Notes under the pieces: generated by a model
What the model saw: only the letters and a program-made list of their open reading frames with translations
What the model was told of the DNA's origin: nothing
Database searches by the model: none
Assembly: GCA_965644315.1 (NCBI GenBank)
Contig: CBFFRQ010000032.1
Coordinates: 186,001 to 250,000 of the forward strand
Origin: Caecitellus pseudoparvulus
Lineage: Eukaryota > Protista > Bigyra: Bicosoecida
Direction of reading: 5' to 3'
Length of the DNA stretch: 64,000 nt
Part shown: positions 20,468 to 61,743 of the stretch, one piece after another
How the letters are laid out: each line of letters starts with the position of its first letter
Position numbering within the stretch: the stretch's first letter is position 1
Position numbers and translations under genes: made by a program

Positions 20468-21088
20468 ATCCAGCGCTCTGCCCACGGCCTGATACGAGGC
20501 TTACCACAACGAACGGCAGATTTTCTCGATCCTGCGAAAGCAAACCCGGCACGAGGCTGCGAAAGTGCCGCGGCGGCTAATTTTCGATTGAATCACAATG
20601 GAAAGCTCAGTACAAGGGCGGTATTTCCGTGCTACGTTGTAGGTCAGCCACTTAGTTTTGCCGCAGTCAAGTGTCTTCGAGTAGCCAGGTGGCAGTGGCA
20701 GAACAGACCCTCAGCCGGCAGCAACGCTACAGGGGCTGACAAATGTTTGCTATGCAGGCTTGAAAACGAAGGGAGCGGCTGCCTCGAGCCATCTTGCGAG
20801 CTGTGCGCAACTGGGAAGCTCAGGACCATTCATTCGACTGAAAAGGACTCCGCCCAAGCGCAGTCCGCGAGGGTCCTCCACATTCTCTTTGATTCAAAGC
20901 ATGGGCCACCTGCAGCATGTTGCAGTAGCTCAAAAGAGGGGTGCAGAACTCCAAAGCATCCTCTTCAGGGGCTGAAAGGTGGACAAGGGAACGGCCTGGA
21001 GGCTCTCAGGCCTGACTGTCGTCACTGCGCGTTCCCGTTGACGCGCTTCTCCAGCTACACTGACGTGGGGGTCACAGAAGCCCGAGGC

Positions 21089-35634: not shown

Positions 35635-35751
35635 GGCGGCAGCGTCTGGATGACTGCCACGTTTCGGCGGCGTTTCACCTGTGCACTGGAGCAGAAGAGC
35701 GCACCAGCGGGGCTCGGTCGGGTTTCAGAAAAAAGGTGCATTGACAGGGCA

Positions 35752-37630
35752 TCAGTAGAAGTTGTAGCCGATGCTGTCAAAAAAGTCACACTCCTCCTTG
35801 AATGTGAAGGTTTGTTCAGAGTTGGCAGGTGTGTCCAGGCGCAGGTAGCTCTGCGTGGTCATGTTGAAGGGGTGCCACGGGATGCCGGCATCGACGCCAG
35901 AGACAGGAGGCAGGGGCACACCACCAGAGGCCATGCTGGTCCAGTAGCTCTGCATGCTCATGCTGAGGTTCTGCTCGCCGGGGGTGTAGGCCAGGTTCAG
36001 GGCTGACGCGTTGGGGTGGAAGATGAAGGGCAAGTCGCCGCCGTGGCAGACGTACGGGTCACACTCCTGGAACTCGGGTCCCCACACCTCCTTGCCGAAG
36101 GACATGACGTGGTCGAAGTGGCCCACGTAGGCAGGGGCGGTCATGCCAGCCATGGCGTAGCGTGTGGGGCACACGAACAGCGCCAGAGTGCCGATGTGAG
36201 ACACCCACGGGCGAGCATCTGTCTTCATGTTGTCGGGGAGGGGGAACTGCTTCTTCACCTTGCCGCCGTTGCCGAGGAACACCACGTCCACGACCACTTC
36301 ATACTCCAGGGAGGACATGGGCTTCCCGAACGCCTCGTAGATGAAGAGCAGTGCTTCGTTGGCGACAGTGGTGGCGATGGCAGGCTTGGTCATGTCAGCC
36401 AGCTGGCCGTTGTGGAAGCCGTCGATGGGGCGGTGGGGGATGAGGGGCGTCTGCACAGTGGGCGTCCAGGGCATGAACAGCTCCAGCAGGCGGGGCCACT
36501 CATCCAGCACATCGTGCAGGGCATCCACCTGGGCCGTGACTATATCCTCCGCAGACTTGCCCATGAGACAGGCCAGCTCGGTGGCGCTGTCTCCGCCCGT
36601 GCAGTTGGCGTACTTGGTGAAGGCGGCGGCGATGGGGCCCCACGTGCCAGGCGTGCGCAGGGGCAGGGCGAGCGGCTCGGACAGCATGTACGACTTGCTG
36701 AAGAGGCCCTTGGAGGACGGCGCGACGTTGTGCAGGGCCACGGAGGCGGCGCCTGCTGACTGGCCGAAGATGTTCACGTTCTCGGGATCGCCGCCGAAGG
36801 CAGCGATGTTCTCCTTGATCCACTGCAGGGCCAGCTGCTGGTCCTGGAAGCCGAAGTTGCCCGCCAGCTGCCCCTCGCCGGTGCCAGTGTACAGGGACCC
36901 TAGCACGCCCAGGCGGTAGTTGAGGGTGACGCACACGACGTTGTGTTGAGAAGCCATGAAGGAGCAGTCGTACAGCAGGCCGCCGGAGTAGCCTGCGGGG
37001 GAGGGGGGGAAGGGTTGGTTGTCGCATGCCGACCCCTCGGCTGCCTCGCAGCGCCACTCACCCTGCTTGAAGTTGCCGCCATGGATGAACGCGACGACAG
37101 GCAGCTTGTGGGGCACGGTCTTGGGGGAAAAGATATTCAGGAAGAGGCAGTCCTCTGCGCAAACGGACGCGGAACCCCGTGCAACGCCACGGAATCCAGC
37201 GAGCGTGGTCGCCGCCCTGCCAGCCCTAGAGCTCGGCGAGGGGTCGGCATGAGACGCACCAGAGGTCACGGCAGGGCATGTGTGAGGGGGGAGGCCGCAG
37301 TCTTGAGGGCAACCAGGGGGGTCTGTGTAATGCTCGAAGCGGAAAGCGCCATGCACTCTGCGTTGCAGAAGCTGTGCGCGCTGGGCAGCCAAGTGCACTG
37401 CACTTCGTACCGGCCGTGGTTTGCTTGATGCCTGACCAGGCTGCCGCTGGCTGTGGGGCTTTCCAACGCAGTGGGCCGACTGGAGGTGCACCATATGGGA
37501 TGCTGCTCCAGACATTGGCCAGCTCAGTCTCGTACCCTTCCACCTTCCCCGTGGAGATGGTGGTGACAGGGCCAGCCCAGGCAGCTGCCACAGCAGCTGC
37601 TGCAACGAGCACGCTAAGCAGGCTGCGCAT
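35752..37630 (-). CDS. Secreted type-B carboxylesterase, copy A; introns 37323-37410, 37155-37259, 36993-37061
   Basis: Signal peptide MRSLLSVLVAAAAVAAAWA; motifs [33 protein letters not shown] and FGQSAGA (catalytic Ser); NEALLF (Glu) and CHGGDL (His). Confidence 0.92.
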
Positions 37631-37886
37631 GTCCGGCACGGTGCTTGCCAAACTTGAGCACTGGTACAGTCTGTAGGGCAGACTGTCGTCACACCGAGAG
37701 GGAACTCGGCTGCTCGTGGAGGATGGTGATTTGTCGGCAGAGCACTGGAGCTGCGGAACTTGCGGCAGCCCAAAAACCGCACTGCAGGCCAGTCTGCTCA
37801 AAACCCGAACCCCGGAATACATTTACAGCATCAAAGTGCTCTCCAAGTCGACGTTGGTTTCGTTTCACACTCGTTGCGCTGTCGCC
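37631..37886. promoter_or_regulatory. Putative bidirectional promoter between the divergent esterases
   Basis: A 256-bp gap separates the two outward-facing ATGs; inferred from position only. Confidence 0.45.
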
Positions 37887-39736
37887 ATGATGCGTCTTGC
37901 GACAGTGCTGGCTGCCGCAGCTGCTGTGGCTGAGGTTGCGGCACTTTCTGCCAATGGACTCACGGTGCAGACCACGGGCGGCACTGTGCAAGGCTACGAG
38001 ACAGACCTTGCGTATGCCTTCACAAGCATCCCCTATGCAAAGCCTCCAGTGGGGCCCCTTCGTTGGAAGAACCCTGAGCCAGCTGTGCCTTGGTCAGGCG
38101 TGTTGCAAGCCACGAGCGGTGAGCCCTGGCGCGGGCAGGGCGATGCTGCATTCCCTTTGCAACGCCGCCCGCGTCTTCCGTTCCGCAGACCCCCCTGGCT
38201 GCCCCCAAAAGTGCGATCTGCCTCCCCACACGTGCCCGACAGTGCAAAGCGGTGCGTGCAGCAGGCTACCCGAGGTGCTATGCTCGCCGCACCTTGCATG
38301 CACAAGCCCATCCTTGCTTTCAGAGGACTGCCTGTTTCTGAGCGTGTTTAGGCCCAAGAACGTCACCAGCAAGCTGCCTGTGGCCGTCTTCATGCCAGGT
38401 GCGCACTCTAGGCGTGCAGCCGCTCCGACAACGCACACGCTTGTCACCCTGTACCTTCCTTGCCACAGGCGGGGACTACAAGGTTGGCTACTCAGGCGGC
38501 GTCCTGTACGACTGCTCAGTGCTCGTGTCTGAGCAGAACTTTGTGTGCGTCACTATCAACTACCGTCTGGGCGCCCTGGGCTTCCTGTACACTGGCACAG
38601 ACGGTGACAGCATCACGGGCAACTTCGGCATGCTGGACCAACAGCTGGCCCTGCAGTGGGTGGCAAGCAACGCCGCTGCCTTCGGCGGCGACCCCGCCAA
38701 CGTGAACATCTTCGGGCAATCAGCAGGGGCGGTATCTGTGGCCCTGCACAACGTCGCGCCGTCCTCCAAGGGCCTTTTCAACCGCACCCTCATGATGTCC
38801 ATGCCCTTCTCCTTGCCCCTGCGCACGCCAGACACGTGGAAGCCCCTCGCTGACTCCTACATCAAACATGCTGGCTGCAGCACCGGCTTGATCAAGAACA
38901 TCGCCAAGGAAATTGAGTGCATTCGTGCCCTGCCAGCCGACAAGCTGGTGGAAGCGCAGGTGGCGGCGGAGCACGACATTCTCGACGAGTACAAGCGCGC
39001 TGTGGAGTTGTTCCTGCCCTGGACGCCCACGCTGGGCAGCGACCTGGTGCCTGTGTCCCCTATCGACGCCTTCCACAGCGGCCAGCTGCCAGACCCATCC
39101 AAGCCCGTCATCGCGACCACTGTGGAGAACGAGGCTGTTCTGTTTGTGTGGCAGGCCTTCACGAAGCCCATGTCTTCCCTCGAGTACGACTTGCTCGTGG
39201 ATGTCATCTTCGCAGGCAGCGGCGGCAAGGTGAAGAAGCAGTTCCCCCTCCCCGACAACATGAAGGCAGATGCTCGCCCGTGGCTGGCACACATCGCGAC
39301 GTTTGGCCTGCTGGTGTGCCCCACACGCTACGCCATGGCTGGCATGACCGCCCCTGCCTATGTGGGCCACTTCGACCACGTCATGTCCTTCGGCAAGGCC
39401 ATTTGGGGCCCCGACTACACCGAGTGTGACGACGTCGTGTGCCACGGCTCCGACCTCGTGCCGTTGTTCCGCCCAGACCCGGCCGATATCGGCGGCCAGT
39501 ACACCCCTGCAGAGGTGGCGCTGAGCCAGAGCATGCAGACCTATGCAGGCAGCTTCTTCCACGATGGGGTGCCAGCGCCACCCGCCACCGGCGTGGACGC
39601 AGGGCTGACCTGGCCTCGCTTCAACATGACGCAGCAGATGTACATGCAGTACCAGACCCCTGCCAATGTGCAGACAAGCCACACGTACGAGACGGAGTGC
39701 GGGTTCTTCGACTCCATCGGATACCACTTCTACTAA
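37887..39736 (+). CDS. Secreted type-B carboxylesterase, copy B; introns 38119-38188, 38252-38323, 38399-38468
   Basis: Signal peptide [19 protein letters not shown]; motifs [41 protein letters not shown] and CHGSDL. Colinear paralog of copy A. Confidence 0.92.
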
Positions 39737-39919: not shown

Positions 39920-42900
39920 ATGCAGCCGTTTCGCGGCGTCCGGGGACGGCCCCGCACGGCCCACTTGCACCCTGCGCCACCGGGAGAGCCCGCCCCGCTC
40001 CTGCACACCTTAACTGTGCACAGGCGGGCGACAGCAGTGCCTGGCCGATCTCGCCCAGCTAGCGCAGGGGCAGCTTCGACCGCTTCAGCGGCGGACCAGT
40101 ACACTGCGCTGCCTCCCTCCCTCCGGAAAGCCCAGGCACGCTTTGCAAAGGTCATGCAGTTCTCCCAGCGGTTCGACAAAAAGGTTGATCAAAAGTTAGC
40201 CCGCCTGCGTGAAGAGGAGTCCAAAGGCATCCTGGCTGCCCGGCAGGAGTTGCGCAGGTCATTGGTGAGTGTCGCTGCGACCACTCTCCCTTCGCGCCTT
40301 CGGGTCTTGCCATACGCTCGCGGAGAGGCTACATGCGCTGTCCTCTGGAGTTCCCAACCGAAATGGTGATTGGGTTTCATCTTTTTGCGTTGGTGCTCCC
40401 CAAGGCTGTGCCTTTGCTCTCTTCCCGGCGATGCTGAGCCGTGTGGCGCTCAACGCTCATCACCAATCCTTGGTCGGTTCACAGGCGCAGGGGAAGGACG
40501 GCCCGGCATCGAGTGGGCAAGGGATTAAATCTTCTAGTCGTCAGCAAAGGTCAAGTGCCATCTCGAAGCATGCCCGCTCGCTGTCTCGGAAGCCTCTCTC
40601 TGTGGATGTAACGGAAGCACGTGCAGGGCACGGTTCAGCACACAGCGCCAGCACGCACCAACTGCGACAACTGCTGGGAGTGGCCACCCCAACAGGAAAT
40701 GTGGCTCTCTCTGACCGAAAACGGGCGGTGGGCTTGGTGGAGCTGCTGCTGTCCCGTTGTGAGGTGGTGCAGGCGGAAAGCAGCGCGGGTGACTCAGAGC
40801 CTGTTGCGTTGCTGCAACTTGACGCAGATCTGCGTGCTGCGTTGCAACGCGTGTTGCAGGAAGTGGAACAACACGAACAAGCTGAGCAGCGGTGGAATGC
40901 GGCCCTCAGGGCAAGAGCAGCCGCTGGCGAGGACGGCGATGGACATGCGTCGGTGCAGAGTGACGCTGCGGCCAGCACGCTTCATGGTGCAGCCACGCCC
41001 GAAAGGACAGAGAGTGATGAGTCATGCACTTCTTTCACTGAGAGTGGGGCCTCGTCTCAGCAGCAGCAGTCAAGTGGAGACGGCGTGGGGAGCAGTGCAG
41101 TGCTCCCGCCGCCCAGGACGGGGCAGGCGACAGAGCTTAGAGTGCGCACCAGGGCCCCGAGTGGCATTGATGCAGAGAGCATTGATGGGCCATCAAGTGT
41201 CCTGGGTGATGCCGATGAAGCGGCTGCGTGGGGAGCCTTGACCGCGCTGGCTGTGGCCTCCGGCACGGGGCAGGGGGACATTCACCTGGGCATGGGCATA
41301 GACCTGGGCTTGCACGTAGGCGCCGGGTTGAACCTGACGGGGCCGGGGGCCATCGGCCTTGGCACTGGCTTCGACCAGAACGAGGTGGCCTTGCACAGAA
41401 CCCACGTGCCAGATGAGGTGGACTTGCTGCCTGTGGATGAGTGCGTGAGTGAGCCGGGCACGCCCCCCGGCATGGAAGACCCCCTGGTTGAGCTGCCTCC
41501 CAAGATGTGGGCTGATGTGCACGACTACATCGCCAAGCCTGACGGGCACTTCCAGCGCGCCTCGCGGCGGCGCCAGCGTGAAGCCTACGCACAGCATGCC
41601 CTGCGGCACAGTGGGGCTGGGAAAGCGGTGCAGCGCGCTCAGTCAGGCAGCTCGGCACCCTTGACACCCACCTCGGGCTCGGCATATAATTCGCGAGCCC
41701 CTGTCTTGCCTCCCGGTGCAGCGAAAGCGAGGCCCCGCAAGGTGGGCCCAGGTGTGGCTGCATATTTCCGCACGGCCAATGCCCGGGATGAAGGCACAGA
41801 CACTCGCCTCGCTCAGCGCAGCATGGACTTGTTGGCTCGCACAGCCCGCGATGTACCTCCCTCACAATCACGCAAGGAGCGGGGAATGGTGCGCCGCGCA
41901 GCTCGCCAGGCCCGACAGGTCGCCGTCGGCGACCAGGTTGCAGGCGACTCAGATGATGGCTCTTCGGATGAGGAGCGCCGCGGCGTTGACACTGCTGCGG
42001 CAGACCTGGAGGATGCACTGGCTGTCAGTGGCGGCGGCGACATGTACCGTGGCGTGCAGCTGTTGCTGCATGAGATCGCCCGAGTCACTGGCACACCCGC
42101 TTCTGCTGCGCTGCAGCGACACCTTGCTGAGCTCGCGAACCCTCAAGTGAAGGACACTGCAGGCCCCTCAGAAGATGCAGCTGGCAAGCCACCACCCCTT
42201 CGACAGGGTGACATGTCCGCCTTGCCTGCCCTGCGTGCTCGTGCAGCTGGGCGCCGCCGCGCCAGGCAGGCTCAGGGCGAAGAGACGGTGGCAGCGTCCG
42301 AGACGCAGCTGGCGCACCGGCTGGCCCGCCGCCTCATGCACCGTGCCAAGATGAGCGCCTCGGTCGCCGCACGCAGCGCTCAAGACGCCGCCAAGACCGC
42401 CGAGGCGGAGGCACTCAAGGTGCACTGTGCTATGTACCCCATCGGCGGCGGTGGCGGTGCTGGTGCAGTGCAGCAAGCCCTGACACGCACAGCGCTGCAG
42501 GAGGCGGCAGCAGCTTCCCGCCGCCGCATGCAGGGCTCTGAGGCTGCAGCGGGCGATGTGTCGCCTACCAAGCCGCGGCCCAAGGGCTCCCGCCGCCGGA
42601 CGCTGCCCGACCGAGATCCAGACTTGCGGCGGCGGTGGGCCCACCTGCGGCGCTCGGCCCGCCGCCCTCAGGAGGCGCATGGCATGAGCACTGCGCCAGG
42701 CTCGGGCGGAGCAGGGCGCCCGGGGCACCCACGCCCCTCATCGTACATGTTTGCCAGCCAGCCCGGGGACCGCGTGCCTGTCGCGGGGGCTTGGGCCACA
42801 CACATAACCCTGCCCGCTGTGTCCGTGCACCGCATCATCCAGCTCGTGCAGCAGTACCGACTGGATGATGCGGACAATGCCGAAGCTCTAGACACGGATG

Positions 42901-45900
42901 GCCTGGCCTTGCCTGAGGAGGGTGCCGACAGTGCCTCCCTGAGTCCCAGAGCCACCCCGCGTGCAGGAGGCCAAGCAAGCCCAAGGGGGGTGAGTGATGG
43001 AGAGCTGGTGCTGGAGACGGGGGGTGAGCTGGGCAAAGGAGTCGTGCTCGTCTCACCCCGTGCAGGCGCACCTGCCACTGCCCGGTGGGGTGCCGGCGGC
43101 ACCGGGCGCCTGTCGCCACGGGACAGGCGCGGCTCGCCACGCGCAGGCAGTGAACAGAGCGCCTCCCCGCGACCCAAGCCACTCCCCGGCAAACTGGACC
43201 TGCGCCTGGCAACTCCGCAAGACGGGCGTGTCAAGGCCCGCATCCAGGCGGCCGAGGAGACTGCGCGCAAAGCGCTGCTGGATGCAGGCGACACAGGCTC
43301 GACTAGCCCTCGGCATGGACACCGCCGCAGCAGCTCCCAGCCCCTGGCTGACGCTCTGGAGATGCTCAAGGCAACGGAAGGAGATGCGGCCCTGGCAGAG
43401 CAGGCAGCCGCTGCACTGAGCAAGAATGAAGCTGAGCTGAAGGCCAAGGTGCGTGCAGGAGCCGCCGAGCTGCCGCTGGGCAGCGCCGAAGAAACTGCCA
43501 GCGCACGAAAGGCATTCGAAGCCATGGTCGGGACGACGATCCGAGATCGCGTGGAGCATGTTGGTTCGGATGGCTTGCCAGTGGAGACTGGCAGCGATGA
43601 CGCCTCTGAGGCAGGCTCGGTATCTGCAGCCTCGGGGGTTGCGCCGAGTGCATGGGGGGAGTGGCGAACTGGTCGACGGCAAACGGCCATCACGCCCCTC
43701 GCACACCGCTCCCCGCAACACAGCCGCAGACAACGGCCGTCGTCTGCCGCCTCCTCCGCAAGCAGTGTGGATGGCAGGCAGCTGCCCGACCCAGCTGCCA
43801 TGACAGAGAGTGCCCTGTCCCTTGCTCGTACAGAAGCAGTGGCAGAGCTTCAGGTTGGCGTCCCACTGTGGAGCACTGATGTGCATTTGAGGCACACGCT
43901 GACTGAGGCAGTGCAGGGACACCGACACGCCAAGCATACCAAGGCTTCACAGCCCGCTGGCGAGCAAGTGCCTCCGAACCAGCCGCCGTGCTTGTCAGAA
44001 ACCCTCGCTGCGGCAACAAGCCGCACGGAGCTTCCTCCCCGCCCTGCGTCGACCAAGGTCGCCCACTTCACACAAGAGTTGCAAGCGAAGCCGCAGGATG
44101 TGCTGGCTTTGACCCACACTGTGAAGCACAGCATGCCTGCACATGCCGGTGTGTCTCCCTTTGTCGTGGCAGCAGGGTCTGCGAACTCACAGCGCGCGCC
44201 GGAGAGGAAGCTGCGACCTGCTCGAACACGGCGCAAGGACGCGCAAGGCGCGCTGCCAGTCAGCGTCGTGCCGACCCCGGTTGATGCACGAATCGGGAGT
44301 GTTTGGACGGGCACTGAAGGCAGTGTGAAGCGCATTTTGAACGCTCAGCGCGTACATGATGCGCTGGAAGGACGCACTGGGCCGCCAGTTGTCCCGCACA
44401 GTGCGGCAGTCGTAGCAGAGGCGAAGAATGCCAGTGAGGGCAGTGACGATGACTTGGCCGTCGATGTGGGGGGTGATGGGGAGGCACTTGGAATGGCCCC
44501 GACGAGGCAGCAGGCCACCTCTCCTCGCCCGCGCCTGGACCGCAAGGAGAGCCATGGGGACCTGGCGCAGGAGGATGCCTCCCAAGCGTTCGCACCCCCA
44601 ACGGACCCCAGCAGGGGGGCCACAGAAAAGCGCCTCAATGCGGAGGCCCTGCAAAAATGTGGTGGGGTTCGCGGAGCAGGGCCCCGCCGCGGCGGGCGCT
44701 CAGGCTCCCCGCTGCCCTTGGAAGAACAGACAGCTGCACCTCGTGCCGTCCAGTGGGGCAGCGGGACCGCCACCTCCCCTGCCCTGCTTGAACAGCATGC
44801 TTCCCACCCAGAACGAGTCTTTGGCTCGCCAAGTGTAACTCCTGGGCACACCGTCCTGTCCCGCTTGTTGCCGCGCCCAATTGGAGCGACGTCTGTCTTG
44901 CGAAGGGTGCGGACTGGTGGCTCCACCACCACACCCAAGCGAGCCGCCGCAGGCACATCACCTGCTCGCACGCCCAACAGCACGGCAGCCCCAAGCAGTC
45001 TTAGCACACCCTTCACTTTGTCCCCAAGCCCTGAGCGGCAACCCGGTCCAGCCCCCACGACCACGCCGCGCCTTGTGTTTCGAGCGCCGTCGTTTCGGGA
45101 GGCTCAGCATGGGCCCAGCCCCGCCTCACAAGGTGCCGAGGGGGACGATGTGTCTTTTCACAGCAGTGAGGAAGGCAAGGCCCCACGAGACGTTTCCGGG
45201 GGATCCCAGGCGTCCAGTGGCAGCCCCTCGACACTTCCTGGCAGCCCAGTCGCTCGCGGTTCGCCAGGGCTGAACGTAGGTAAGTTCCGGAAACTGCTGG
45301 CCATGCAAGGCGCAGTGGCCCGCCTCAGCAGCGTCGTTGGCCGGAAAAATGCCCGCAGCAAGCGCAACAGCCTCCTACGGGTGGCGCAACTGGCGAACGC
45401 GCAGCAGAACCTCGCAGTTTCCGCGGCGGCCGGCGGCGACGATACGCTGACAGCGGCTGACGTGCAACGAGCAGCCGAGCAGCTGGCAGCGGCCGAGGTG
45501 GCTGGGGCGCTGTCTGTGGCTGGGCACATGGTGGATCCCATTGTCGGGCCCAAAGTGTCTGTGATGGTGTCCGAGGTGAATGATGCCTCAGCCGTCGTTG
45601 CGCGCATGCCGTGGAGCGAAGTGGGCACGGACGCCTTGCGCGCCCCACGGACAGCGCTGCAGGCCCTCACAGAAGAGGACATCGCAGAAGGCAGAGTGGA
45701 TCGAGCAGCCGATTTTGACCCCTTTGGAGCCCGGGGCACACTTGGACTGCCTTCAACTGACACGGGCCTGGACTACGGCGAGTACAGTGCAGAGAGGCGA
45801 GAATGGAGCACCGCTCTGCACGCTCGAGCCACTAGCGCGGTGCAAAAGGCTCTGTACAAGGCGCAGCCCTGGTGGCATCGTGCTGAACCCGGGGAAGAAG

Positions 45901-46955
45901 CAGCCACCCTTGCCGATGAGCCGCCTGCGCAGCAAGTTGGAAGCGCGCCGAGTCCGGCTGCTGAGGCCAACCGACCTGCGCCGCCACAGCCTTCAGTCGG
46001 TCCTCCGTCGAGCAAAGACGGCAGCTTTGACGAAGACTTGGCGGGGCTCAACCTGGAGGGCATGGGAGAAACCCTTGCTCTGTCCGCTTCCGCAGTGGCG
46101 TCAGGCCTGGTTGCGCGCCTGCGCCACCGGGAAAAGCGGCCAAGCGCCGTGTCCTGGGCGACACGCACAAGCGCCGCAAGTGATGGCGAACCAGGCGGCA
46201 AGTCACGCGCTCCAGTGGAAGAGGGGGGTGAAAGCAGCTTCAAGATCAAACATGAGCGGGACATTCGCCCCAGCGTTGCTTCTCTGACGGTGCGCCGCGG
46301 CCAGAGGGGTGCGGCGCAGAAGGGGCAAGGTGTCAGCGCAGTGCCACGCCAGGTGGAGCCTAGTGTGAGCATGGTGGCGTTGGCATCCGTGCCATCTGTC
46401 GCACAGTCGTTGGGCGGTGCAGATGATGATGTGGCCTCAGTCAGCTCACACTTGGCACATGTGACAGGAACTGCAGGGGGCGAAGTGGCAGTCGGAGCAC
46501 GCAGTGTCGGGCAACAGGGAAGAAACTCACAAGGTGACCCCGACGTGCAGCTGTCATTGGAGCAAAAGATACAGCTTCATGGTGCAGCTGCGCTGCGAGC
46601 TGGTCAGACTGCCGAGTTCCAGCCACGGCACACACATCGTCGTGCTGAGGCCATGCCCCGCTGCTTCGCGGATGCTGTGCAGTTCCGCTTGACTGGGGTG
46701 AAGGCTCACACCCAAGAAGGCGCGAAGAAAGTTCGCAAGGCTGCGCAATCCGCTGTGCGAAAGTACCAGCGGAGGGAGCTGAGCAAGCTGAAGAGTGCCC
46801 AAGAACACCACCAGCGGGAAGTGGCCATTCGCAGCGCAGCCATGAGCGCTGTGAACGATGTCATGTCCGACATTGCCCTGAGCCGCCGTCGCCACGTGCA
46901 CCGCGCAGCTTTCGGCGTGCAGGATCGCCCGCCGACCATGAAGGACTCTGAATGA
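39920..46955 (+). CDS. Large, mostly disordered hypothetical protein (>2,200 aa) with terminal coiled coils; start uncertain; predicted intron 40265-40484
   Basis: 6.5-kb open frame. An upstream coiled-coil exon (FDKKVDQKLARLREEESKGILAARQELRRSL) joins it in frame via GTGAGT...TTCACAG. Ser/Pro/Arg/Ala-rich. Confidence 0.65.
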
Positions 46956-47007: not shown

Positions 47008-49812
47008 TCAGACTGCCTCCACCAGCTTGGGGCAGCGAGGGAACTTGAGGGACTGAAAGCCAGCCTTGGCTTGTACGGACCCAGCATACTTCGCCAACAG
47101 CTCCTGCGGCCAGCCAGCCTTGTGCAGGACAGCTACAATTGCAGGTGGGGTTGGCACTTGCATGATCTGTTCTGGGGTCAAGTGTTCCGCGTCTCCACTG
47201 TGAACCAGGGCAGAATGCGCGAGCGCAGTGCAGGCTTCGATCCAAGCGGGCTCTGTGCCTGAGGAGCCATGCTCCAGTCGAGGAGCAGGGCTTTCCAAGC
47301 ATTCGAGGAGACGAATGACAGCCGCTTCCGCACTCTTCGCATATGGGGCGCTGGCATCCCACTGAGGGGCTTTGCGTGCTGTGTTGTACAAGTGACGCGC
47401 CGAAACTGCCAGCATCCACTGCTGCGTCCCATCCAAGTCCCGCAAAGCCGCTCGCAAAGCTGCCGGCTGACGAAGAGCAACCGGCTTAGAAGGGCGAGTA
47501 TCGAACACGAGCTTGTGCAGGGCCAGGGACAGCAGGCCTGCCGCGGATTCGGCAGACACCTCTCGTATGCTAGTGGCAACTGCAAGCAGCTGCACAAGGT
47601 CGGGCGTGGACCACTGCGTGGCGCGGGTGGCCTGGGAATGCTGATTGACACGACATGTCTTGGACTCGTTTGCCGTGGCTGTGCCCGAGTGTGCTTGCAA
47701 GTACGTGCCAATGCCTGTGGAGGTAGCTGCTGCGTGTTTTTGTGCCCGGTGGCTGGACGGCTTGGGGGGAAAGAGCTCGCTGCCGAAACCCGGGACTTTC
47801 CCCTCATGCTGCACGGCGCGGCGAAGCAGAGGCTCAATGAAGCGGTCTGTGACTAGCTGAGGGTCAATTCCAGCAGGGGAGTTCTTCGCACCCACTGACC
47901 TCACGCCTGCCTGCGCCATGGCGGCGGACAGGTCGCGCTCTGCCCCTTCGTCCCCTGCCCGTAGCTCAGCTGCCGCTCTAAACGGATCGCTGCGGTGCAG
48001 ATTCACCGCTTGTGGGTGCACATGGCTGCGTAGTGCCACGGCCAGCAGCGCCCGCATGCCACTGTGGGGCGGCAGAGCTGCACATGCGCTGACGCTGAGC
48101 ACCGCTTGCAGCAAAGCTGGCGGAGCGCCTTTCCCAATGGCAGCGGGAACAGAGGCAAAGTACGCTGCGTATTGTAAGGCACTTGCAATTTGGTGGGGTT
48201 TCCAATGCAGTGCTGGCAATGTGGCAAGGTACTGCGCCATGGCGTGGGGTGACAGGTCCCGCAAGCGCGGACTGACCTGCCGCCCTGCCACAGCCGCCAA
48301 CTGCCCATCCTGCAGCCCAACAGTGGCCAGGGAGCGCAGAAGCGAGGTGATTTCTCGCGGCTCGGGGGCAACTGGTCGTACAGGCGCATACGAGCGCTTG
48401 GTGGAGCGTTTTCCGTGCGTTAGGGCGTCAGGGGGGGGGTCAGCGTGATGCAACATGGCGGCTGTCGCGCTTTTCACTGCAGTCACGACCAGCGGCTTCA
48501 AAACTGCTGCCTCGGGGCTGTCAGCAGCCAGCTGCTGATGAGCCCAAGCTGCATGGTCCGCCAATGCTGCCACTTGTTGCCCCGTGCCTCGCCCCAGGCG
48601 CTGGGGGTGCTGTGCGGCCTGCAGCAGCAATGCCCACAGAGGCACGTCAACCAGGCCAAGCTTGCGGTAGCCTGACGCGATGGAAATGAGGCCTACGAGG
48701 GACTGCTTGCGCATGCTTGCCATGAGGGCAGGTCGCAAGCTTTGCATAACTTGCGCTGTGGGTGTCAAGGATCCATCTCGGTGGAGGCAGAGTGACGGCG
48801 TGCTTGACTTGGCGATGGCGTGGGTGAGGTTGGCCAGCACCTGCGGCGTGACGCTGGCCTTGGCCAGCGCCGTCTCCAGGTGGGCGGGGGGGAGGTCAGC
48901 CACAGACTGAATGGCCCGCTGCAGCTTGTGCGTCGCCAGACTCAGCAATACGTGCACGCTCTCCGCATTGGTCGCAGGGGGCGGCGCGGGCCGGCCTTGG
49001 TGAAAAGCGTACATCTCGCGCAGGTGCTGGGGTGACGGGACTGCCACGGCGCTGCCTGGCGCCAGGGACACGGCAGACGTCGCCATGCTGACTGCTTCGA
49101 TGAGAGACACGTGCTTGCGGAGGCGAGCGGCCCGCTCGGCAGCCTGTGCCAGCACCTGTGCGTCGGCCGCCCCGGCCATGCTCAAACCGTGCAAAAACTG
49201 CACCAAGTCCTTGGCGTTGAAGCGCCTGAAGCGGCCCCTGGCCGCACCAACCACACCTTGCACTAACTGGGGCATGGCCATGCCAGAACGCCCCACGGCG
49301 TACAGCGTGGAGGACAGTGAGCGTGGGTTGAGAGCAGGCGCATCAGGCTTGCCAGCCGCCAGCTCCGCCAGCATACTGCTCTGCAAGTCTGCCATGCGCG
49401 CAGTGAAGGTTTGCAGGGGCAGTGGTTGGCGCTTGTGGGGTGCAACTTCCTTCTGCAGTGCAAGGACTCGCTGCAGCGCCGAGGCGTGGGCAATGGCGTC
49501 TGCGGAGTGCGCCTCGGCAGACCACACCTCCAGGGCCTCGCCGGCTGTCCGGCACGACCGCAGCAAGCCGTGGATGTAGGCAGCTGGGGAATCAGTTGCA
49601 CGGCGCTCGGCAGGTGCAGGACGACTCTGGTACACCTTCACTGCTCGCTTGCTCTTCGGGGCTTTGGCCAGTGCGTCCCCGACTGAGGACTCCACAGCCG
49701 TCGTTGAGCTGGTTCTCACTGCATGAAACGCTGGGATGAAACTGCGCCCGACCCTGCAAGCCACCCCAGAGCGCCCTCTGAGCGAGGCAGCCGCAGCCGC
49801 GGCCACAATCAT
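47008..49812 (-). CDS. Helical-repeat (OPR/FASTK-like) organellar RNA-binding protein
   Basis: Presequence-like N-terminus; repeated units LNPRSLSSTLYAVGR, FNAKDLVQFLHGLSM, VTPQVLANLTHAIAK, PEPREITSLLRSLATVG and LSPHAMAQYLATL. Confidence 0.7.
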   Translation of the reverse strand: MIVAAAAAASLRGRSGVACRVGRSFIPAFHAVRTSSTTAVESSVGDALAKAPKSKRAVKVYQSRPAPAERRATDSPAAYIHGLLRSCRTAGEALEVWSAEAHSADAIAHASALQRVLALQKEVAPHKRQPLPLQTFTARMADLQSSMLAELAAGKPDAPALNPRSLSSTLYAVGRSGMAMPQLVQGVVGAARGRFRRFNAKDLVQFLHGLSMAGAADAQVLAQAAERAARLRKHVSLIEAVSMATSAVSLAPGSAVAVPSPQHLREMYAFHQGRPAPPPATNAESVHVLLSLATHKLQRAIQSVADLPPAHLETALAKASVTPQVLANLTHAIAKSSTPSLCLHRDGSLTPTAQVMQSLRPALMASMRKQSLVGLISIASGYRKLGLVDVPLWALLLQAAQHPQRLGRGTGQQVAALADHAAWAHQQLAADSPEAAVLKPLVVTAVKSATAAMLHHADPPPDALTHGKRSTKRSYAPVRPVAPEPREITSLLRSLATVGLQDGQLAAVAGRQVSPRLRDLSPHAMAQYLATLPALHWKPHQIASALQYAAYFASVPAAIGKGAPPALLQAVLSVSACAALPPHSGMRALLAVALRSHVHPQAVNLHRSDPFRAAAELRAGDEGAERDLSAAMAQAGVRSVGAKNSPAGIDPQLVTDRFIEPLLRRAVQHEGKVPGFGSELFPPKPSSHRAQKHAAATSTGIGTYLQAHSGTATANESKTCRVNQHSQATRATQWSTPDLVQLLAVATSIREVSAESAAGLLSLALHKLVFDTRPSKPVALRQPAALRAALRDLDGTQQWMLAVSARHLYNTARKAPQWDASAPYAKSAEAAVIRLLECLESPAPRLEHGSSGTEPAWIEACTALAHSALVHSGDAEHLTPEQIMQVPTPPAIVAVLHKAGWPQELLAKYAGSVQAKAGFQSLKFPRCPKLVEAV

Positions 49813-50163
49813 TGTGGGAACTGGGCTAGTGTTGCTAAGACAGTGGCCAGCCCGTCCTGCCCTCTGCAGTGCAGCCTGGAAGTAGCCAGGCAGGCAAGTA
49901 CTCCTCCAGGTGCTGGCTTGTGAGAGTTCCTGGGAAGTGGCACTTTGTCGTACGGCTCAAAACGTCGGCCCAGCGTATTTCCACAGGGCGCACATTTTTG
50001 TTGTATGCCTTACAAGTCTTAGTGCCAACTCTCCTGTTGCGCGGCACGCTCCCCTCACAGGCATCCACAAGAGTTTCGTGCACATCACACGCCCCAGCAC
50101 TTCTGCCAGGCTTTGAGGTAAATCTGGACGGATACGGCGAAACCTTGGGCTGAAGACGTGTAA

Positions 50164-54388: not shown

Positions 54389-54692
54389 TAGATTCGATCG
54401 TCAGCCGTGCAAACGTCAACGAGTGCGCTCTCCCTGACTGGAATCCGCCTGCCCGGATGCTCCTCCTCCTAAGTGCCCACAGCGTCGGATCGACTTCCCT
54501 GAACGTTACACGCACGCTCATAGCCTGCTTTGTGTCATCCATTTGGAGTGTAAATTGGCAGCGAGGATCTCAGGGGTGTCCGGATCTGCCCCCCTCGGGT
54601 GTCCGGGAACTGGCCCTGGGACACTCCTTGCACCCCCTTTCAGGGCCTCAATAAATGACACCCTCTGGTCCATGCTAGCGCTTCGTAGGTAA

Positions 54693-55253
54693 AACATATC
54701 ATTTTTTTCATTCTCAGAGGGTCAGGGAAGTTCGGGAGGATTCCCTGCTCGTGGGTGGCGTGGAGGTGGTGGCACGGATGTGGTCCGCACTGTGCAGGCG
54801 GCAGAGCACGCGGCCAGCGACCCCCGCCTGGCCGACGCTCCATCCTGGTCGGAACAAGGCCAGCAGGCAGCCGCTGCAGCGGAGGCAGGCGCCTTGGCAT
54901 CGGAGGTCATGGGGGTGGTGCTGGCTGCCATGGGTGCAGATGTGTTCCTGACGGCGTACAACGGTGAGCGGCGGACCAGGGCGGTAGCGAAAGAGCGGCG
55001 GGCGAAACAGGTGGCGCAGGAGGTGGTGGTGAACCCGGCAGCAGCAGCTGCAGGGTGTCGGATCCGGAAGGCACAGGCGAAGAAGCGCCACGTGGCGAAA
55101 CGCATGGACAAGCTGAAGGTGCTGCGAGGCGGTGGTGGGAAGTGCAGGAAGCGTGCGAGGGAGGAGTCAGAGGAGTTGGTGTGTGCAGGTGTGAGAATGC
55201 AATGCAGGTGTGGGAGCGGGAGATGTGGGGATGGTGGTGAGGTGTGTTGTTGA
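54693..55253 (+). pseudogene. UTP20: 5'-truncated fragment resembling the extreme C-terminus of UTP20 (SSU processome)
   Basis: LASEVMGVVLAAMGADVFLTAYN...KERRAKQVAQEVVVNPAAAA...RIRKAQAKK matches my recollection of the UTP20 tail pattern LxxE+xxxxxxxxGxxxFxxA(Y/F)...RxKxxAxExVxNPxxAA. An in-frame stop at 54690 precedes it and there is no suitable upstream start. Confidence 0.65.
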
Positions 55254-55363
55254 GTTGCGTGTGGTGGATTGAAGTGTGTACTGGCCTAAAGTGGGTGTCA
55301 GGTCTGCCACATGTTGCATTGGACTGTGCGTGAAGCCAGAGATCAACTCAAGTCTGTCAAGCT

Positions 55364-57628
55364 CTAAAACGTGGGAGCTTGCCGCCGCACGTTGTCTGGG
55401 ATCCTTCGGTGTCCAGTGAGGCCCAGCAGCTCACGCACGATGCCTGTGTGGCCTTTCAAGCATGCCCATCGGAAGGCGGCCTCAGGTCCACCCCTATCCA
55501 CCGCATGCACATCCACTTCTCGAGCTCCAGAGAGGCCCAGCAGCTCACTAACGATGTCTATGTGGCCATTGGCGCATGCTTCTCGGAAGGCAGCCTCAGG
55601 TCCAACCTCATCCGCTGCATGCACATCCACTTCCCGCGCCCTAGTCAGGGCGAGAAGCCCACGCACGATGTCTGTGCGGCCATAGCGGCATGCGGTGCGG
55701 AAGGCGGCCTCAGGTCCGTTCCTATCCGCCGCATGCACATCCACTGCCTCATCACCCGTCAATGCAAGCAGCTCACGTACTCGCTCAAGTTTGCCTTCAC
55801 TGCACGCTTCTACAAAAGCAGTCGTATTCTCCTCACTGAACTTTACTTGCCCAGGGGCGTGCCCTGCCTGCACCTGAGCTGCCGCAGCAGCTGCCTGCTC
55901 TCGATCAAGCACACTCCGCACAGCACTCTCCACATCTGACAGGCGCCACACTCCACCCCCGCTTCTTTCACACGCCATCGCGTATGCACCCATGCAGCTA
56001 CCACTCCCTCCCCGCCCCAACACCTCCAATGTGCTCGACAGGGCATGCTCACCACCTTCACCGCTGCCCACGAAAAGTGACCCAACGCCCGATCCGCCAC
56101 CCAAGGCCCCACCTCCCACTCCAAGCACCCCGTGCAGCACACCCAGCACACCATCACCAGCACCGCCGCCACCATCAGCCTGGCGTGTGCCCCACACACG
56201 GCCACATGCACTCAACACCACCTCACACCCACCCCCATCCAGTGCCGCCACCAGATCACCCACACTGCCACTCTCCACACCCACCACCACAAAGCTCCCC
56301 ACACCCACACCATTCAGACTCACTCCACACGCCTCCGCCACAGCACACACACCCAGCACCCTTACAGCCACGCGATGCTTCACATCCAGCCCAACATCGT
56401 CCCACGCTTCATCCTCCAGGAACACCCTCAGCGGCCACCCCGCCTCACACTGCACCTGCACTGTGGCACTGCTCCTCTCACCACTTGGCTCATCAGCTCG
56501 GCCACCAATGACTCCATGTGCGAGTGCTGCCTTGTGTGGAGTCTGCGCCATCCGTGGAAGTCCTTGGGCGATGCGAGTCGCTTCGCCACGCTTCACGGCG
56601 CCAACACTAGTTGCAAGCGCTGTCGCACCCGCATCCACACTCCCTGCCCACTCTTCCACATCCTCAGCTCTATCGATATCTTCATCCACGATCTCACTCC
56701 GTCCACTGTACACACTCACATCCTTGCCGTTCAGGCACTCAAAGCCGCCCGACAAGTCCAAGCCACGCACAGCCTTCACCTTCCGACCACTCATGACCGG
56801 CGCACACCCCAGCAGCCCCCGCAGCTCCTCCACCGCACTCGCTGCACTCTCCAGGTGCTCCGCAGCACTCTCACTCCTCAGATCGCCTGCTGCCTCGCCT
56901 CGCAGCCACTCAGCCTGCTGACGCATGCCGGCTAGAGCCGCCTCCGTCGCTGCTTCGCCACCGGCATCATGTGTGACTGGGCCACCCTCACCAGCCACAC
57001 CTGCCTCCGCCCTCTCGAAGCCCTGCCACCATCGTGTCAGATCAGCCAGCGCACCCTCTACATCCACACCGCTCCGAACACTGCTCCAAGCACCCACGAT
57101 GGCGCCCCACAGTGCGTCACCCTCCGGCACTGCATCAACACTCACGCCAGATACCGCCTGGTGCAGCACATCCACCGCGGCGAAGCACCGGAACGACAGG
57201 TACTGCAGCGCAGCACACACATCACCTCGCTCACGCTGCCCCGCCAACAACGCAGCTTGCTCCAACAGCGCACCCCCCGCGTCACGCAGTGCAGCCTCCA
57301 GCTCCACCAGGCTCATGGCCGATGGGGCGTCATCACCTGCAGCATGCACTTCGCCACGCCCAATGGCTGCCAGTCCTCGCAGTGCAGGGCCGTGTGCCAT
57401 GAAGCTGCCCGGCAAGCACTTCATCTTGCCCAAGCATGCCGCCACCCCCTCAGCCTGTGTGACGTCGATGCCTGCAGTGGGAGCTGCACTGTCGTCCATG
57501 GATTGCCCTGTGGCTGCTGCCTGTGGTGTGGGGGAGGGACAGGGCGTTGTGTGCTGTGTGGTGTGAGCGACACGCTCTGGCGCAAGTGCTTGCGAAAGCG
57601 GAGCGCCGTGTCCACGCCAACGCACCAT
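55364..57628 (-). CDS. Transposon cargo gene: helical N-domain, probable pseudokinase and 4 ankyrin repeats; predicted introns 57521-57625 (right after the ATG) and 57683-57788 (5' UTR)
   Basis: Intact 2.2-kb ORF; ankyrin units EAAFRxACxxGxxxIVxxLLxL; kinase-like spacing PLRVFLE...KHRVAVRVLGVCAVAEACGVSLNGVGVGSFVV and MACER...RLSDVESAVRSVL. Both introns end CACACCACAG. Confidence 0.75.
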   Translation of the reverse strand: MVRWRGHGAPLSQALAPERVAHTTQHTTPCPSPTPQAAATGQSMDDSAAPTAGIDVTQAEGVAACLGKMKCLPGSFMAHGPALRGLAAIGRGEVHAAGDDAPSAMSLVELEAALRDAGGALLEQAALLAGQRERGDVCAALQYLSFRCFAAVDVLHQAVSGVSVDAVPEGDALWGAIVGAWSSVRSGVDVEGALADLTRWWQGFERAEAGVAGEGGPVTHDAGGEAATEAALAGMRQQAEWLRGEAAGDLRSESAAEHLESAASAVEELRGLLGCAPVMSGRKVKAVRGLDLSGGFECLNGKDVSVYSGRSEIVDEDIDRAEDVEEWAGSVDAGATALATSVGAVKRGEATRIAQGLPRMAQTPHKAALAHGVIGGRADEPSGERSSATVQVQCEAGWPLRVFLEDEAWDDVGLDVKHRVAVRVLGVCAVAEACGVSLNGVGVGSFVVVGVESGSVGDLVAALDGGGCEVVLSACGRVWGTRQADGGGGAGDGVLGVLHGVLGVGGGALGGGSGVGSLFVGSGEGGEHALSSTLEVLGRGGSGSCMGAYAMACERSGGGVWRLSDVESAVRSVLDREQAAAAAAQVQAGHAPGQVKFSEENTTAFVEACSEGKLERVRELLALTGDEAVDVHAADRNGPEAAFRTACRYGRTDIVRGLLALTRAREVDVHAADEVGPEAAFREACANGHIDIVSELLGLSGAREVDVHAVDRGGPEAAFRWACLKGHTGIVRELLGLTGHRRIPDNVRRQAPTF
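55400..55830 (-). repeat. 114-bp (38-aa) ankyrin tandem repeat with high internal DNA identity
   Basis: GCATGCACATCCAC recurs at 55503, 55617 and 55731; CGGAAGGC(G/A)GCCTCAGGTCC recurs with the same period. Confidence 0.9.
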
Positions 57629-58046
57629 GGCGATGGGTGACAGGGGGTCTGATCAGGCGTGGCAGTGCTGTGAAACTAGCTCCTGTGGTGTGGGTACAGT
57701 GGGCAAGTGTGCTAGGTGTGGCGGGGAGGCGTTGTCGTAGTTCACGTGCGAGGGTGCAACTTCCGCACTTGCACCAGTACGTCCTCACCTGTGGCGGCCA
57801 GGAGTGCTGAAAAAGCCCCAGGCACACTGGTGGGCGCACATGCAGTGACAGCACAGGTGTGTGTGGGAATACGTTGAGGTGTAAATTGGTGGAAGGCATT
57901 TCAAAGGTGTCCGGCTATGCTCGACCGAGTGTCTGGCATCTCAGCAAAAATGCGGAAAGAGCTTGCAGGACACCCCTGAGATCCCTGATTGGCAGGCACA
58001 GATCTCTGCACAGAGCCAGCTGGCTCAGTTCGAATGCTCAACAGTA

Positions 58047-61000
58047 TCAAAACCACTCCTCAGTGCCATCCAAGTCACCTGACTCCTCAACAGCGCCACT
58101 CTGCGCAGTCAAGCGTCCACCTGCGCTGCTCCCCTTTGACTTCTCCAGCGCTTGGATGCCCCCGCCTCCAGAGCCAACAGACAGGCCAGAAATGGCGCCA
58201 GTCCGTGCGGGCGCTGTCGGCGTCGCCTTCTCCGGTTGGCCAAGCTTGCCTTGTGGGCTCAGTTCACTGGAAGCCTGCTTGATCGCATGCCTGGAAATAA
58301 CGGGCTGGTCGTCTTCGTCGGAGTCACTCCACCCCTCGTCGCCATAGTCGCTGTCCGTGTCACTGCCACCACCCGCCCCCTTGCCCCCTCCAAAGCTAGG
58401 AGCAGAGCCAACAACTGGCGAGAGAGCTGCCTTAGCCTGCGCATCGGCTGCACTGCCTTCCATGGCCCCATGCGACGTTGAGCTCGCCATCCAGCTTGGC
58501 TTGTAGGCGCCTGATTCCTCTGCCGCCGGGCTTCCTGCACCCGGGGCCTCCAAGCTTGCCTCCTGCATCCACGATGGCACATCAGCTGCTGGTGCTGCTG
58601 CTGGTGCTGGTGCTGCTGCTGGTGCTGGTGCTGGCGACGGTGCACTTGCCTCCTGCATCCACAATGGCACATCAGCTGCTGGTGCTGGTGCTGGTGCTGG
58701 TGCTGGTGCTGGTGCTGGTGCTGGCGACGGTGCACTTGCCTCCTGCATCCACAATGGCACATCAGCTGCTGGTGCTGGTGCTGGTGCTGGTGCTGGTGCT
58801 GGTGCTGGTGCTGGCGACGGTGCACTTGCCTCCTGCATCCACAATGGCACATCAGCTGCTGGTGCTGGTGCTGGTGCTGGTGCTGGTGCTGGTGCTGGCG
58901 ACGGTGCACTTGCCTCCTGCATCCACAATGGCACATCAGCTGCTGCTGCTGACGCTGGTGCTGGTGCTGGTGCACTTGCCTCCTGCATCCACGATGGCAC
59001 ATCAGCTGCTGCTGCTGGTGCTGGTGCTGGTGCTGGTGCTGGTGCTGGTGCTGGCGACGGTGCACTTGCCTCCTGCATCCACAATGGCACATCAGCTGCT
59101 GGTGCTGGTGCTGGTGCTGGCGCTGGTGCTGGTGCTGGCGACGGTGCACTTGCCTCCTGCATCCACAATGGCACATCAGCTGCTGGTGCTGGTGCTGGCG
59201 CTGGCGACGGTGCTGGTGCTGGCGCTGGCGACGGTGCTGGTGCTGGCGCTGGCGACGGTGCACTTGCCTCTTGCATCCACGATGGCACATCAGCTGCTGG
59301 TGCTGGTGCTGGTGCTGGTGCTGGCGCTGGCGACGGTGCACTTGCCTCCTGCATCCACAATGGCACATCAGCTGCTGGTGCTGGTGCTGGTGCTGGCGAC
59401 GGTGCACTTGCCTCCTGCATCCACGATGGCACATCAGCTGCTGGTGCTGGTGCTGGTGCTGGCGACGGTGCACTTGCCTCCTGCATCCACGATGGCACAT
59501 CAGCTGCTGGTGCTGGAGCTGGAGCTGGTGCTGGTGCTGGTGCTGGCAACGGTGTAGAAGCCACCTGGCTGTCAGAACCAGAGGCTTGAGCACTGTCTTC
59601 GAAGTCGCTGTCTGCATATTCGTCGAAGCCATCATCCGAGTACCCTGCATCTGTGTCGGGTGATGGTGCACGCTGCGGCTTGGCAATGTGTTGGGTGGGT
59701 GCAGGAGAAGGCGAGGGCGCAGGTGATGCGCTTGCTACACTGGGCACTTTAACGTGGCTTTCTGGTCCAGTGCTTGTATCAACATGAACAGGGTCCGGCT
59801 CAGGCGAGAGGGCTTGCTGTGGGCGGGTGGCGGATTGGGTCGCAGAGGACGCTTGGAAGCCAGAGGTGCTGCGTGCATGCTTGCTGCTCGAAGATTGGCG
59901 CATAGTGTGTGCAGGGGCTGCTTGCTGGGCTGCGCTGCGACCTCCGCCCGCCTTGCGTGGCTGTGCGAAGCCGGGAGACGCGAAGGGTGCTCCAGCCCCG
60001 CCGCCTGCGACCTTGGCGCCAGCCCGTGCGATGCTCGAGGCGGAGCGGTGGTGGGATGCGCGACTCTGAATCGTGTCTTTCTGTCGCTGAGGTGGCTGTC
60101 GCTTTGGTGACGGGGACTCGCGCGCGGGTGCGGGGGATGGCGATGGCACAGCACTGGGCAGCGGTGGGTGTGTCCGTTGGTACGTGCCGCTCTCCTTGGC
60201 GCGTGTGAGGTACGCAGGAAGGGGGGACGCCTTGAAAGGTTTTGAGGACTGCTGTGTTGGGCGAGTGCGGCACCTGGAGCTAGCCCTGCCCTTGGACCTC
60301 CCGCGGCGTCCGCTAGCCTGGCGATCCTGCACTGCCAAATCAGCCTCGTGCTTCATCGCCAGGTGGGCCCGCTGCCGCAGCGACCGTGCGCGGTCCCTGG
60401 CCCTGGGCCTGGACATGGCTTCAACTGTGCTGCGCTGGCGGGCGGCCCGGGCTGCGGCCTGGGCGCGGGCTACTTCATCTGCCGGCCCAGACTTGCGGCT
60501 GGCAGTGGTTCGCACACCGCCCCAGAGCGCGCCATACGTGCCCTTGACGCTCGCCTTGAGAGAGCGGCCGCCTAGGTTCGCCTTGGCTCGCTTGCGCTGG
60601 GCTGGGGAGAGGTCTGCCGTGTAGATCCCAGCTGTGCGGCGGGTGGCAGTGCGGCCCGCCCTGGCTCGCAGTGGCGACATGGCGTCTCCGCCAGCGCCAG
60701 CGGGGTCGACGACCGGGTCCCCCCTGCCCTCTCCTCGGCCAGATCCTGAGCCAGAGTCGCCTGGCTGGGGCAGGCCAACCGCTTCCGCCACCTGTGCGAT
60801 GAAGTCCTTGTTGGTGACGTACCCGTCATGGCCGCGCGGAGGGGGGCTGCGACCTGCACCCCCCCCCTCGCCTGCACGTAGGTGGGCTGGGCGCCTGCTG
60901 CGCCTGTTGGAGTGCTTGGCTCCTGCTGTGGATGCCATGGAACGAAGAACGCCTCGTGCTCCGCGCTGCCTTGTCGCCAGCACGTCGGCCACGCTAGGAC

Positions 61001-61743
61001 TCTCGGAGCGGGGCTGCCTGAGCCTGGGGCGCCGCTTGCGGGAGACGTCCACCAGGGGCTTGCTCTTGGGAGAGTCTCCTGTCGGTGAGGGGGGCGATGC
61101 GTCCACCAAGGCAGGAGCTGCCTCGTCCCCGCCGTCCACGACAGGCGCGTAGCCAGACACGCCAGCCGGCAGGGGGCCTCTACCGCTCATCGCCGCCTCC
61201 TCTCCCAGGGAAGCCATCATACCTGAGGCAGTACTGGTAGGTGACATCATGTGTGGCCCCGCACCGTGCCGGCGTCGTTGGCGGTGCTTCTGGCGAGGCA
61301 TACGCGTCGCTGTGATGTGCGGCCTCCTGCGCACTGGGTCGCTGTGCGACGCAGCTTGCTGTGCTCCACCGTCCCTGCCTGATGCAGCAGTCGCTGCCTG
61401 CATGGCATCAAGCTGGGCTTGCAGTTCTTCCACAGTCAAATCTTCCAGGGCCGACGGCTCGGTCAAATCAAGCACGGCCTGGGCGTGGCCCTCCACAGAC
61501 CTGTGAGGAAGAAAAACCGAAGCTGTTGGCAACTGCTTGTGCAGGGGCAGGAGCGCCTTCTGCGACAAGCCTGGTGTCGCAAGCAAGTGGACAACGTAGG
61601 CGTTAGCACTGCCACAGTACTGCAGCCAGCACTGCGGCACTCTGCCGCGTGTGACCTGGCACACAGAGCCGAACCACACAGCCCAACTGGCCGGCAACAT
61701 GCGTGACACCTCAACGCAGGCGCGCGCACCTTGCAGAACTCAT
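58047..61743 (-). CDS. Disordered Pro/Ala/Arg-rich protein with a Trp-motif repeat array; predicted intron 61501-61729
   Basis: ATG 61743 (MSSAR|SVEGHAQ) splices in frame into the long ORF. Contains KPFKASPLP, 12 ADVP(S/L)WMQEA repeats and an acidic tail ending EEWF. Confidence 0.7.
58553..59550 (-). repeat. Coding minisatellite: 12 copies of ADVP(S/L)WMQEAS separated by variable (PA)n hexamer runs
   Basis: + strand unit CTTGCCTCCTGCATCCAC(A/G)ATGGCACATCAGCTGCT followed by (GGTGCT)n. Confidence 0.95.

Follow-up and report, generated by a model that had tools for sequence, protein, structure and literature searches.

A transposon-borne pseudokinase-ankyrin gene in the stramenopile Caecitellus pseudoparvulus, a candidate one-piece non-self receptor

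A 64,000-nucleotide stretch of the Caecitellus pseudoparvulus genome (assembly GCA_965644315.1, contig CBFFRQ010000032.1, positions 186,001 to 250,000; hereafter the window, whose numbering we use) carries a 3,426-bp transposon (54562-57987). Within it lies an unbroken minus-strand open reading frame (ORF) of 711 amino acids, from the ATG at 57499 to the stop at 55364, confirming the intact ORF claimed by an earlier sequence-only reading. The ORF, the terminal inverted repeats (TIRs) and target-site duplication (TSD) of the element, its multi-copy state, the family-wide loss of catalytic kinase motifs, the variable tail and the hypervariable ankyrin codons are all observed by sequence and computation. 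We propose that this intact gene, carried in a non-autonomous hAT-type element and part of a lineage-restricted multigene family, encodes a protein, with a predicted layout of helical bundle, dead kinase and ankyrin repeats, that works as a one-piece non-self receptor, a proposal whose chances we consider evenly balanced.

The four ankyrin repeats recognized by the sequence-only reading are present at residues ~556-698, and three of them are repeats of 114 bp at the DNA level, with near-identical framework codons. The hypervariable codons are those of repeat positions 7, 8, 16, 19 and 20; in these five codons, 23 of 30 first and second positions differ, compared to 22 of 186 in the remaining codons and 15 of 49 at silent four-fold sites, and replacement changes at the ankyrin face surpass silent divergence. 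In 32 repeats from nine other proteins, four of these five positions vary the most, and the predicted model puts the hypervariable codons in the hairpin loop and the inner helix, which form the binding face. The ankyrins of Podospora NLRs show positive selection at the binding face and repeat-number polymorphism (PMC4986451). Of two relatives of our protein, P0008 and P0025, one has a whole repeat more than the other. By counts, then, the family has the variable-number C-terminal repeats with diversifying binding-face sites of NLR/STAND proteins, and the four ankyrins follow the pseudokinase, at which an MLKL chain ends with no sensor repeats. The hypervariability of the ankyrin face is a strong hint rather than a formal test. 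Together with the change in repeat number, it gives new support to the sensor role proposed earlier for the ankyrins, which quite probably form a diversifying sensor.

The middle region almost certainly adopts a kinase fold, judging from the predicted model, and the earlier kinase call, made tentatively, is supported by structure as a dead kinase fold. The MLKL pseudokinase is among the best structural matches, tied (within 1 Z) with ALK, IRAK4 and RIPK2, and the kinase domains of RIPK1 and RIPK2 are also among the matches. With motif positions taken from the secondary structure of the model, we found no conserved beta3 Lys, a catalytic loop without Asp or Asn, and [SG]AC in place of DFG. The absence of HRD and DFG holds in all aligned family members and is shared with the MLKL family. 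The N-lobe is the more variable half, with a mean identity of 0.37 compared to 0.55 for the first C-lobe part. Sequence-level tests for a kinase failed, both with Pfam and with family profiles against PDB sequences, and hhalign of the family against the window's Mps1 kinase and against a 121-row Mps1 alignment gave probabilities <1%. The atlas returned RIO/APH rows for the middle region (0.87-0.88, a lead only), and the fold search with the full-length model returned ankyrin matches only. Pfam matched neither NACHT nor NB-ARC in the centre, where an NLR/STAND protein has its NTPase and this protein has the kinase fold. As a pseudokinase family it is invisible to every sequence profile tried here.

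Residues 1-545 have 19 representatives among 1.84 billion sequences, all with E≤3.5e-26 and none weaker down to E=0.001; a profile search added two fragments and one unrelated ankyrin protein. All family records are unnamed ENA/Logan sequences except two labelled Symbiodinium sp. KB8. The KB8 records (P0044, P0151, P0152) comprise an Mps1 domain identical to that of Cafeteria and two family members; the label of the latter is doubtful because of this identity, and the KB8 assembly probably mixes in stramenopile flagellates. Full-length family frames span 600-1,600 amino acids, with a core identity of 33-81% and a variable tail. Ankyrin motif counts range from 0 to 8 in 17 proteins, Sel1 repeats occur in two of 20 relatives scanned (nine in P0009, and in P0013 next to an Ala/Glu-rich probable coiled coil), P0015 and P0020 have no repeat tail, and several relatives are fragmentary or end in degenerate tails. 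P0020 (1,608 amino acids, on 54-kb contigs in two assemblies) has the bundle-pseudokinase module at its C-terminus, behind a stretch of ~1,150 residues without any Pfam match. Different tails occur on three close relatives in a tree of 16 long members, and identity along the chain among P0002-P0004 swings between 47 and 100%, a pattern suggestive of recombination among paralogs or of repeats assembled into chimeras. Long near-identical pieces of the locus occur in two runs labelled marine metagenome. None of 47 pattern matches to the family locus in JGI metagenomes and none of 32 in IMG/VR was confirmed, PADLOC gave no match, and searches of the literature outside subscription papers and supplements turned up no paper on a family of this kind, either from stramenopiles or from transposons.

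The element is bounded by a perfect 17-bp inverted repeat (54565-54581 and 57968-57984), which can be lengthened to 20 bp by allowing two terminal mismatches, and by an 8-bp TSD (Table 1), as in hAT elements of the Ds-like and Pack-TIR kinds. The Ac/Ds TIR of maize starts with CAGGGAT, as the right end of this element does, and a duplication of 8 bp is characteristic of Ac/Ds as well (PMC3260210). No recognizable transposase was found in the element, which is best read, on its sequence features, as a non-autonomous hAT-type transposon carrying a cargo gene.

Summed contig depth in run X3, which is not an exact copy number, is 71 for the flanking genes, 740-1,530 for the non-coding parts of the element, 1,770-5,940 for the bundle and kinase region and up to 18,400 for the ankyrins; the depth shape is the same in X1, X5 and X7. 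These depths point to tens of copies at at least 85% identity, with non-coding flanks amplified along with the gene. One X13 contig (record 24) matches 57750-57987 at ~90%, leaves the match exactly at the TIR end and continues with 182 unlike bases, and thus places the same end at another site, for the right end only and in one contig. (Runs X11 and X13, with small word shares, served only for contig ends and depth shape.) Contigs from X3, X5 and X7, which belong to three studies, cross the two junctions at the depth of a single copy, and one of them differs at 34 of 1,839 bases; the insertion is therefore common to these samples and not brand new. No empty-site joint is among the joints listed (15 of 120 and 15 of 130). 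Bins with the element ends rise far less, to 91 and 286 in X3, so these data do not show that most paralogs lie between these TIRs. Thus, of the earlier claim that the gene is amplified by transposition, the mobility of the 54562-57987 element stands on the TIRs, the TSD and the X13 contig, but an origin of most paralogs from this TIR pair is not established. The same reading had argued for DNA-level capture from two GT-AG introns. These are plausible candidates in the leader, but the argument is weak because long intron-free coding frames are common in the window; the TIR/TSD structure makes the same point.

Table 1. Coordinates of the element and its cargo gene in the window
Feature	Position	Strand	Basis
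Left TSD, 8 bp, ATTGGCAG	54554..54561	+	script
Left TIR, 20 bp, second and third bases unlike the right one	54562..54581	+	script
185-codon open frame within the element, multi-copy by depth	54696..55253	+	ORF list, depth
Four ankyrin repeats (residues ~556-698), capping helix, stop	55364..55834	-	domain scan, DNA repeats, model
Pseudokinase (residues ~229-545)	55865..56815	-	kinase fold in predicted model and motif alignment
Helical N-region (residues 1-230), candidate MLKL/HeLo-like bundle and brace	56810..57499	-	predicted model
Predicted intron 2, 105 nt, immediately after in-frame ATG 57628-57626	57521..57625	-	GT-AG candidate
Predicted intron 1, 106 nt, 5' leader	57683..57788	-	GT-AG candidate
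Right TIR, starts CAGGGAT	57968..57987	-	script and contig end
Right TSD, 8 bp, identical to left (ATTGGCAG)	57988..57995	+	script

The 185-codon frame of the element shows no coding signal (5 of 13 listed differences are synonymous versus 3.9 expected, and one is a stop), no family match above the cut-off and no transposase match. It is unsupported as a transposase remnant and is probably 3' flank or filler; a 3-base deletion in it recurs in other copies, alongside a stop. TIR scans gave three viral matches and one metagenome match, all lone, which we take as chance rather than as related elements since none has a second TIR or further similarity to the element.

A foreign ligand would bind to the variable ankyrin face of the proposed receptor. 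The nucleotide-free pseudokinase would then change shape as a conformational switch, as the MLKL analogy suggests, and the helices at the N-terminus, if the candidate four-helix bundle (4HB) is one, would be released to damage membranes or to signal, as in MLKL, for which activation entails oligomerization and membrane damage. The protein could have a role in defence or cell death, and transposition and repeat shuffling might supply the turnover required by receptor repertoires. It is possible, although we would sooner expect otherwise, that a marine stramenopile has built its own NLR-like repertoire, with a pseudokinase switch replacing the NTPase, and that single chains combining an MLKL-type killing bundle, a fully dead kinase and a hypervariable ankyrin sensor of the DARPin kind were copied and shuffled by hAT transposons. 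MLKL-like death proteins would then have arisen independently once more, and a protist would possess a library of mobile immune receptors. How single-celled eukaryotes recognize viruses, bacteria or non-kin is largely open, and the family offers a concrete candidate, a tripartite receptor with a pseudokinase in the place of the NLR NTPase and sensor repeats that evolve like those of fungal NLRs. If the N-region kills, stramenopiles join animals, plants and fungi in having MLKL-like execution, and a receptor gene has been caught being spread whole by a DNA transposon; even if it does not, this is a new pseudokinase family and a natural ankyrin library.

Several observations weigh against the receptor reading, and many concern the N-region. 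This region is all-helical in a confident model (helices 13-25, 36-47, 64-85, 89-116, 127-139, 147-165, 182-200 and 210-230), and at an identity of 0.49-0.53 it is as conserved as the best kinase part, the C-lobe core. The last three helices are candidate equivalents of the MLKL brace between bundle and pseudokinase. All seven rows listed by the atlas are families of the MLKL/HeLo/RPW8 clan (0.76-0.78), a weak lead at scores (<0.8) that shuffled proteins also attain. Foldseek ranks full-length MLKL (4BTF) first, a further weak lead (398 columns, E=0.014, rmsd 22.7, no range printed) that PINK1 nearly equals (E=0.016) and that comes from a model larger than the N-domain alone. At E≤10, Pfam MLKL_N/RPW8 matched none of 25 members. 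With 13 and 12 residues, the first two helices are short; HeLo membrane attack centres on the extreme N-terminal helix (PMC12881547). The N-region has about even odds of being a HeLo/4HB homologue, so the fold proposed for it by the sequence-only reading has weak leads in the atlas and Foldseek but is not established. A four-copy complex model of residues 10-232 scored 0.00, with the alignment unused and the partner fold uncertain, and counts neither way.

The other adverse points come from the kinase, the ankyrins and the gene itself. The tie of MLKL with ALK, IRAK4 and RIPK2 means that the structural match shows a kinase fold, not MLKL descent. Strand 261-271 has no conserved Lys in 22 aligned rows, at the place of the MLKL-family beta3 (VAIK) Lys, which MLKL retains (PMC4718504), and in plant MLKL immunity is separable from death (10.1101/681015). 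The Fisher P of 8e-5 for the ankyrin codons is overstated, as the five codons were partly picked after seeing the data and the three pairwise comparisons are not independent. The GC content of the ORF at third codon positions is 0.60, low for the genome, compared to 0.74-0.88 in three host genes. The sole run recorded as RNA, X19, covers 21 of 30 bins at a depth <21 and contains a 48-kb contig; it shows nothing on expression or splicing because its coverage extends to non-coding bins. Constraint is weak: between this copy and the bulk of the others, 16 of 40 listed coding differences are synonymous versus 11.4 expected (P=0.07), in a biased sample, the best-supported few of ~690 and ~1,390 rows.

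The same fold and diversifying sensor might instead serve a non-lethal scaffold or decoy, with the N-region as a plain helical adaptor and a pseudokinase that recruits a partner or regulates it in signalling or prey recognition, or traps viral proteins that target kinases. ILK, JAK JH2 and plant ZED1/RKS1 are pseudokinases that act on a partner in this way. We consider this rather unlikely. It would fit the unproven identity of the N-domain with its short first helices, the greater variability of the N-lobe, and members without repeats or with a 1,150-residue N-terminal fusion (P0015, P0020), but two methods that share no scoring weakly indicate the MLKL/RPW8 clan for the N-region, and that region is conserved to the level of the C-lobe core.

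An improbable explanation is that an old host family gene was captured by hAT and recently multiplied as a passenger of no benefit, its young copies drifting. Histone H3 copies amplified by a fungal hAT provide a precedent (PMC6710886), and the weak synonymous excess, the atypical codon use, the lack of expression evidence and the fragmentary or tail-degenerate relatives would all be expected. However, none of the 40 listed coding differences is a stop, full-length frames are maintained at 33-81% identity, replacement change runs ahead of silent divergence at the ankyrin face, and the insertion is common to the samples of three studies, with flanks that differ at up to 34 of 1,839 bases. Very improbable is a selfish addiction or kin-discrimination module, whose bundle toxin, checked by matching ankyrin alleles, kills cells or mating or fusion partners that lack a copy: a candidate death domain and hypervariable recognition repeats do sit on a mobile element, and fungal allorecognition NLRs have the same repeat pattern (PMC4986451), but the element holds no second gene with coding signal and the family is old and diverse.

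The ORF sits in a short gap between a BBS5 gene and a 1,230-codon ORF that ends at 58047. This neighbour (58050-61739, minus strand) contains a long Ala-Pro/WMQEAS tandem array and has no Pfam match. In a one-gene tree of 53 rows (the best 45 of 120 matches, seven further named sequences and the query), the Mps1 kinase of the window groups with Cafeteria, labyrinthulids and a diatom (support 98/96), on a separate branch with unnamed sequences; this makes the host a stramenopile and, because of the separate branch, rejects Cafeteria. Elsewhere in the window are a head-to-head inverted duplication of carboxylesterase genes, ~80% alike (35755-37797, minus; 38342-39733, plus), a further ankyrin-repeat ORF of 439 codons (627-1943, minus), and a 4,348-codon open frame in a lower-GC stretch (20264-33307, plus; GC 54-61%). 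The last has no Pfam match at E≤0.01, nor do six long ORFs of 794-2,228 codons (2243-6328, which includes three 153-bp repeats, 9924-12740, 12802-18561, 33343-35724, 40269-46952 and 47011-49956).

Among known systems, RIPK4, ANKK1 and ILK share a kinase fold and ankyrin repeats with the Caecitellus protein. The kinases RIPK4 and ANKK1 are active and lack an N-terminal bundle, and ILK is a pseudokinase with N-terminal ankyrins; with no competent kinase at its N-terminus, our protein finds a poor analogue in RIPK4/ANKK1, which the sequence-only reading had named. Pack-TIR and Ds-like hAT elements with cargo (Ssk-FB4; fungal hAT-histone H3) share the short TIRs, the 8-bp TSD, the lack of a transposase, a captured gene and several copies, and both multicopy Pack-TIRs (PMC8277862) and hAT-amplified genes (PMC6710886) are known. 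The cargo differs in being an old multidomain gene that is whole and open and evolves in a receptor-like way, not a fragment, a chimera or an inactivated housekeeping gene.

Bundle-kinase proteins are known in plants (10.1101/681015), as are fungal HELL-kinase/pseudokinase and Glomeromycotina MLKL-like proteins, some with Sel1 repeats (PMC12881547, PMC8778642). The latter two share the bundle, kinase fold, repeat tail and lineage-specific expansion; our family shows no sequence similarity to either in the searches made, has a stramenopile host and mostly ankyrin tails, and is transposon-borne. Fungal NLRs with diversifying ankyrins (PNP_UDP/NACHT/ANK) share the three-part layout, the change in repeat number and the hypervariable hairpin and inner-helix sites, but have a NACHT/NB-ARC NTPase where the protist protein has a pseudokinase, and the repeats of the protist copy, ~68% identical, fall below the 85% mark of PMC4986451. 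Animal MLKL (4BTF, 4M67, 6VBZ) and plant AtMLKL1-3 have, like the protist protein, a helical N-region, linker helices and a kinase fold without HRD and DFG. In contrast to MLKL, the protist protein has an additional C-terminal ankyrin or Sel1 tail and no conserved beta3 Lys, it is 13-14% identical with no sequence-level match, its family is multigene and mobile, and its 4HB is a candidate only. Plant and animal MLKLs are thought to be convergent (10.1101/681015), and the protist protein may thus be an independent assembly. By analogy, it would work like MLKL joined to a sensor of the fungal NLR type, while its extra tail and missing beta3 Lys set it outside the MLKL family and its lack of an NTPase outside the NLRs.
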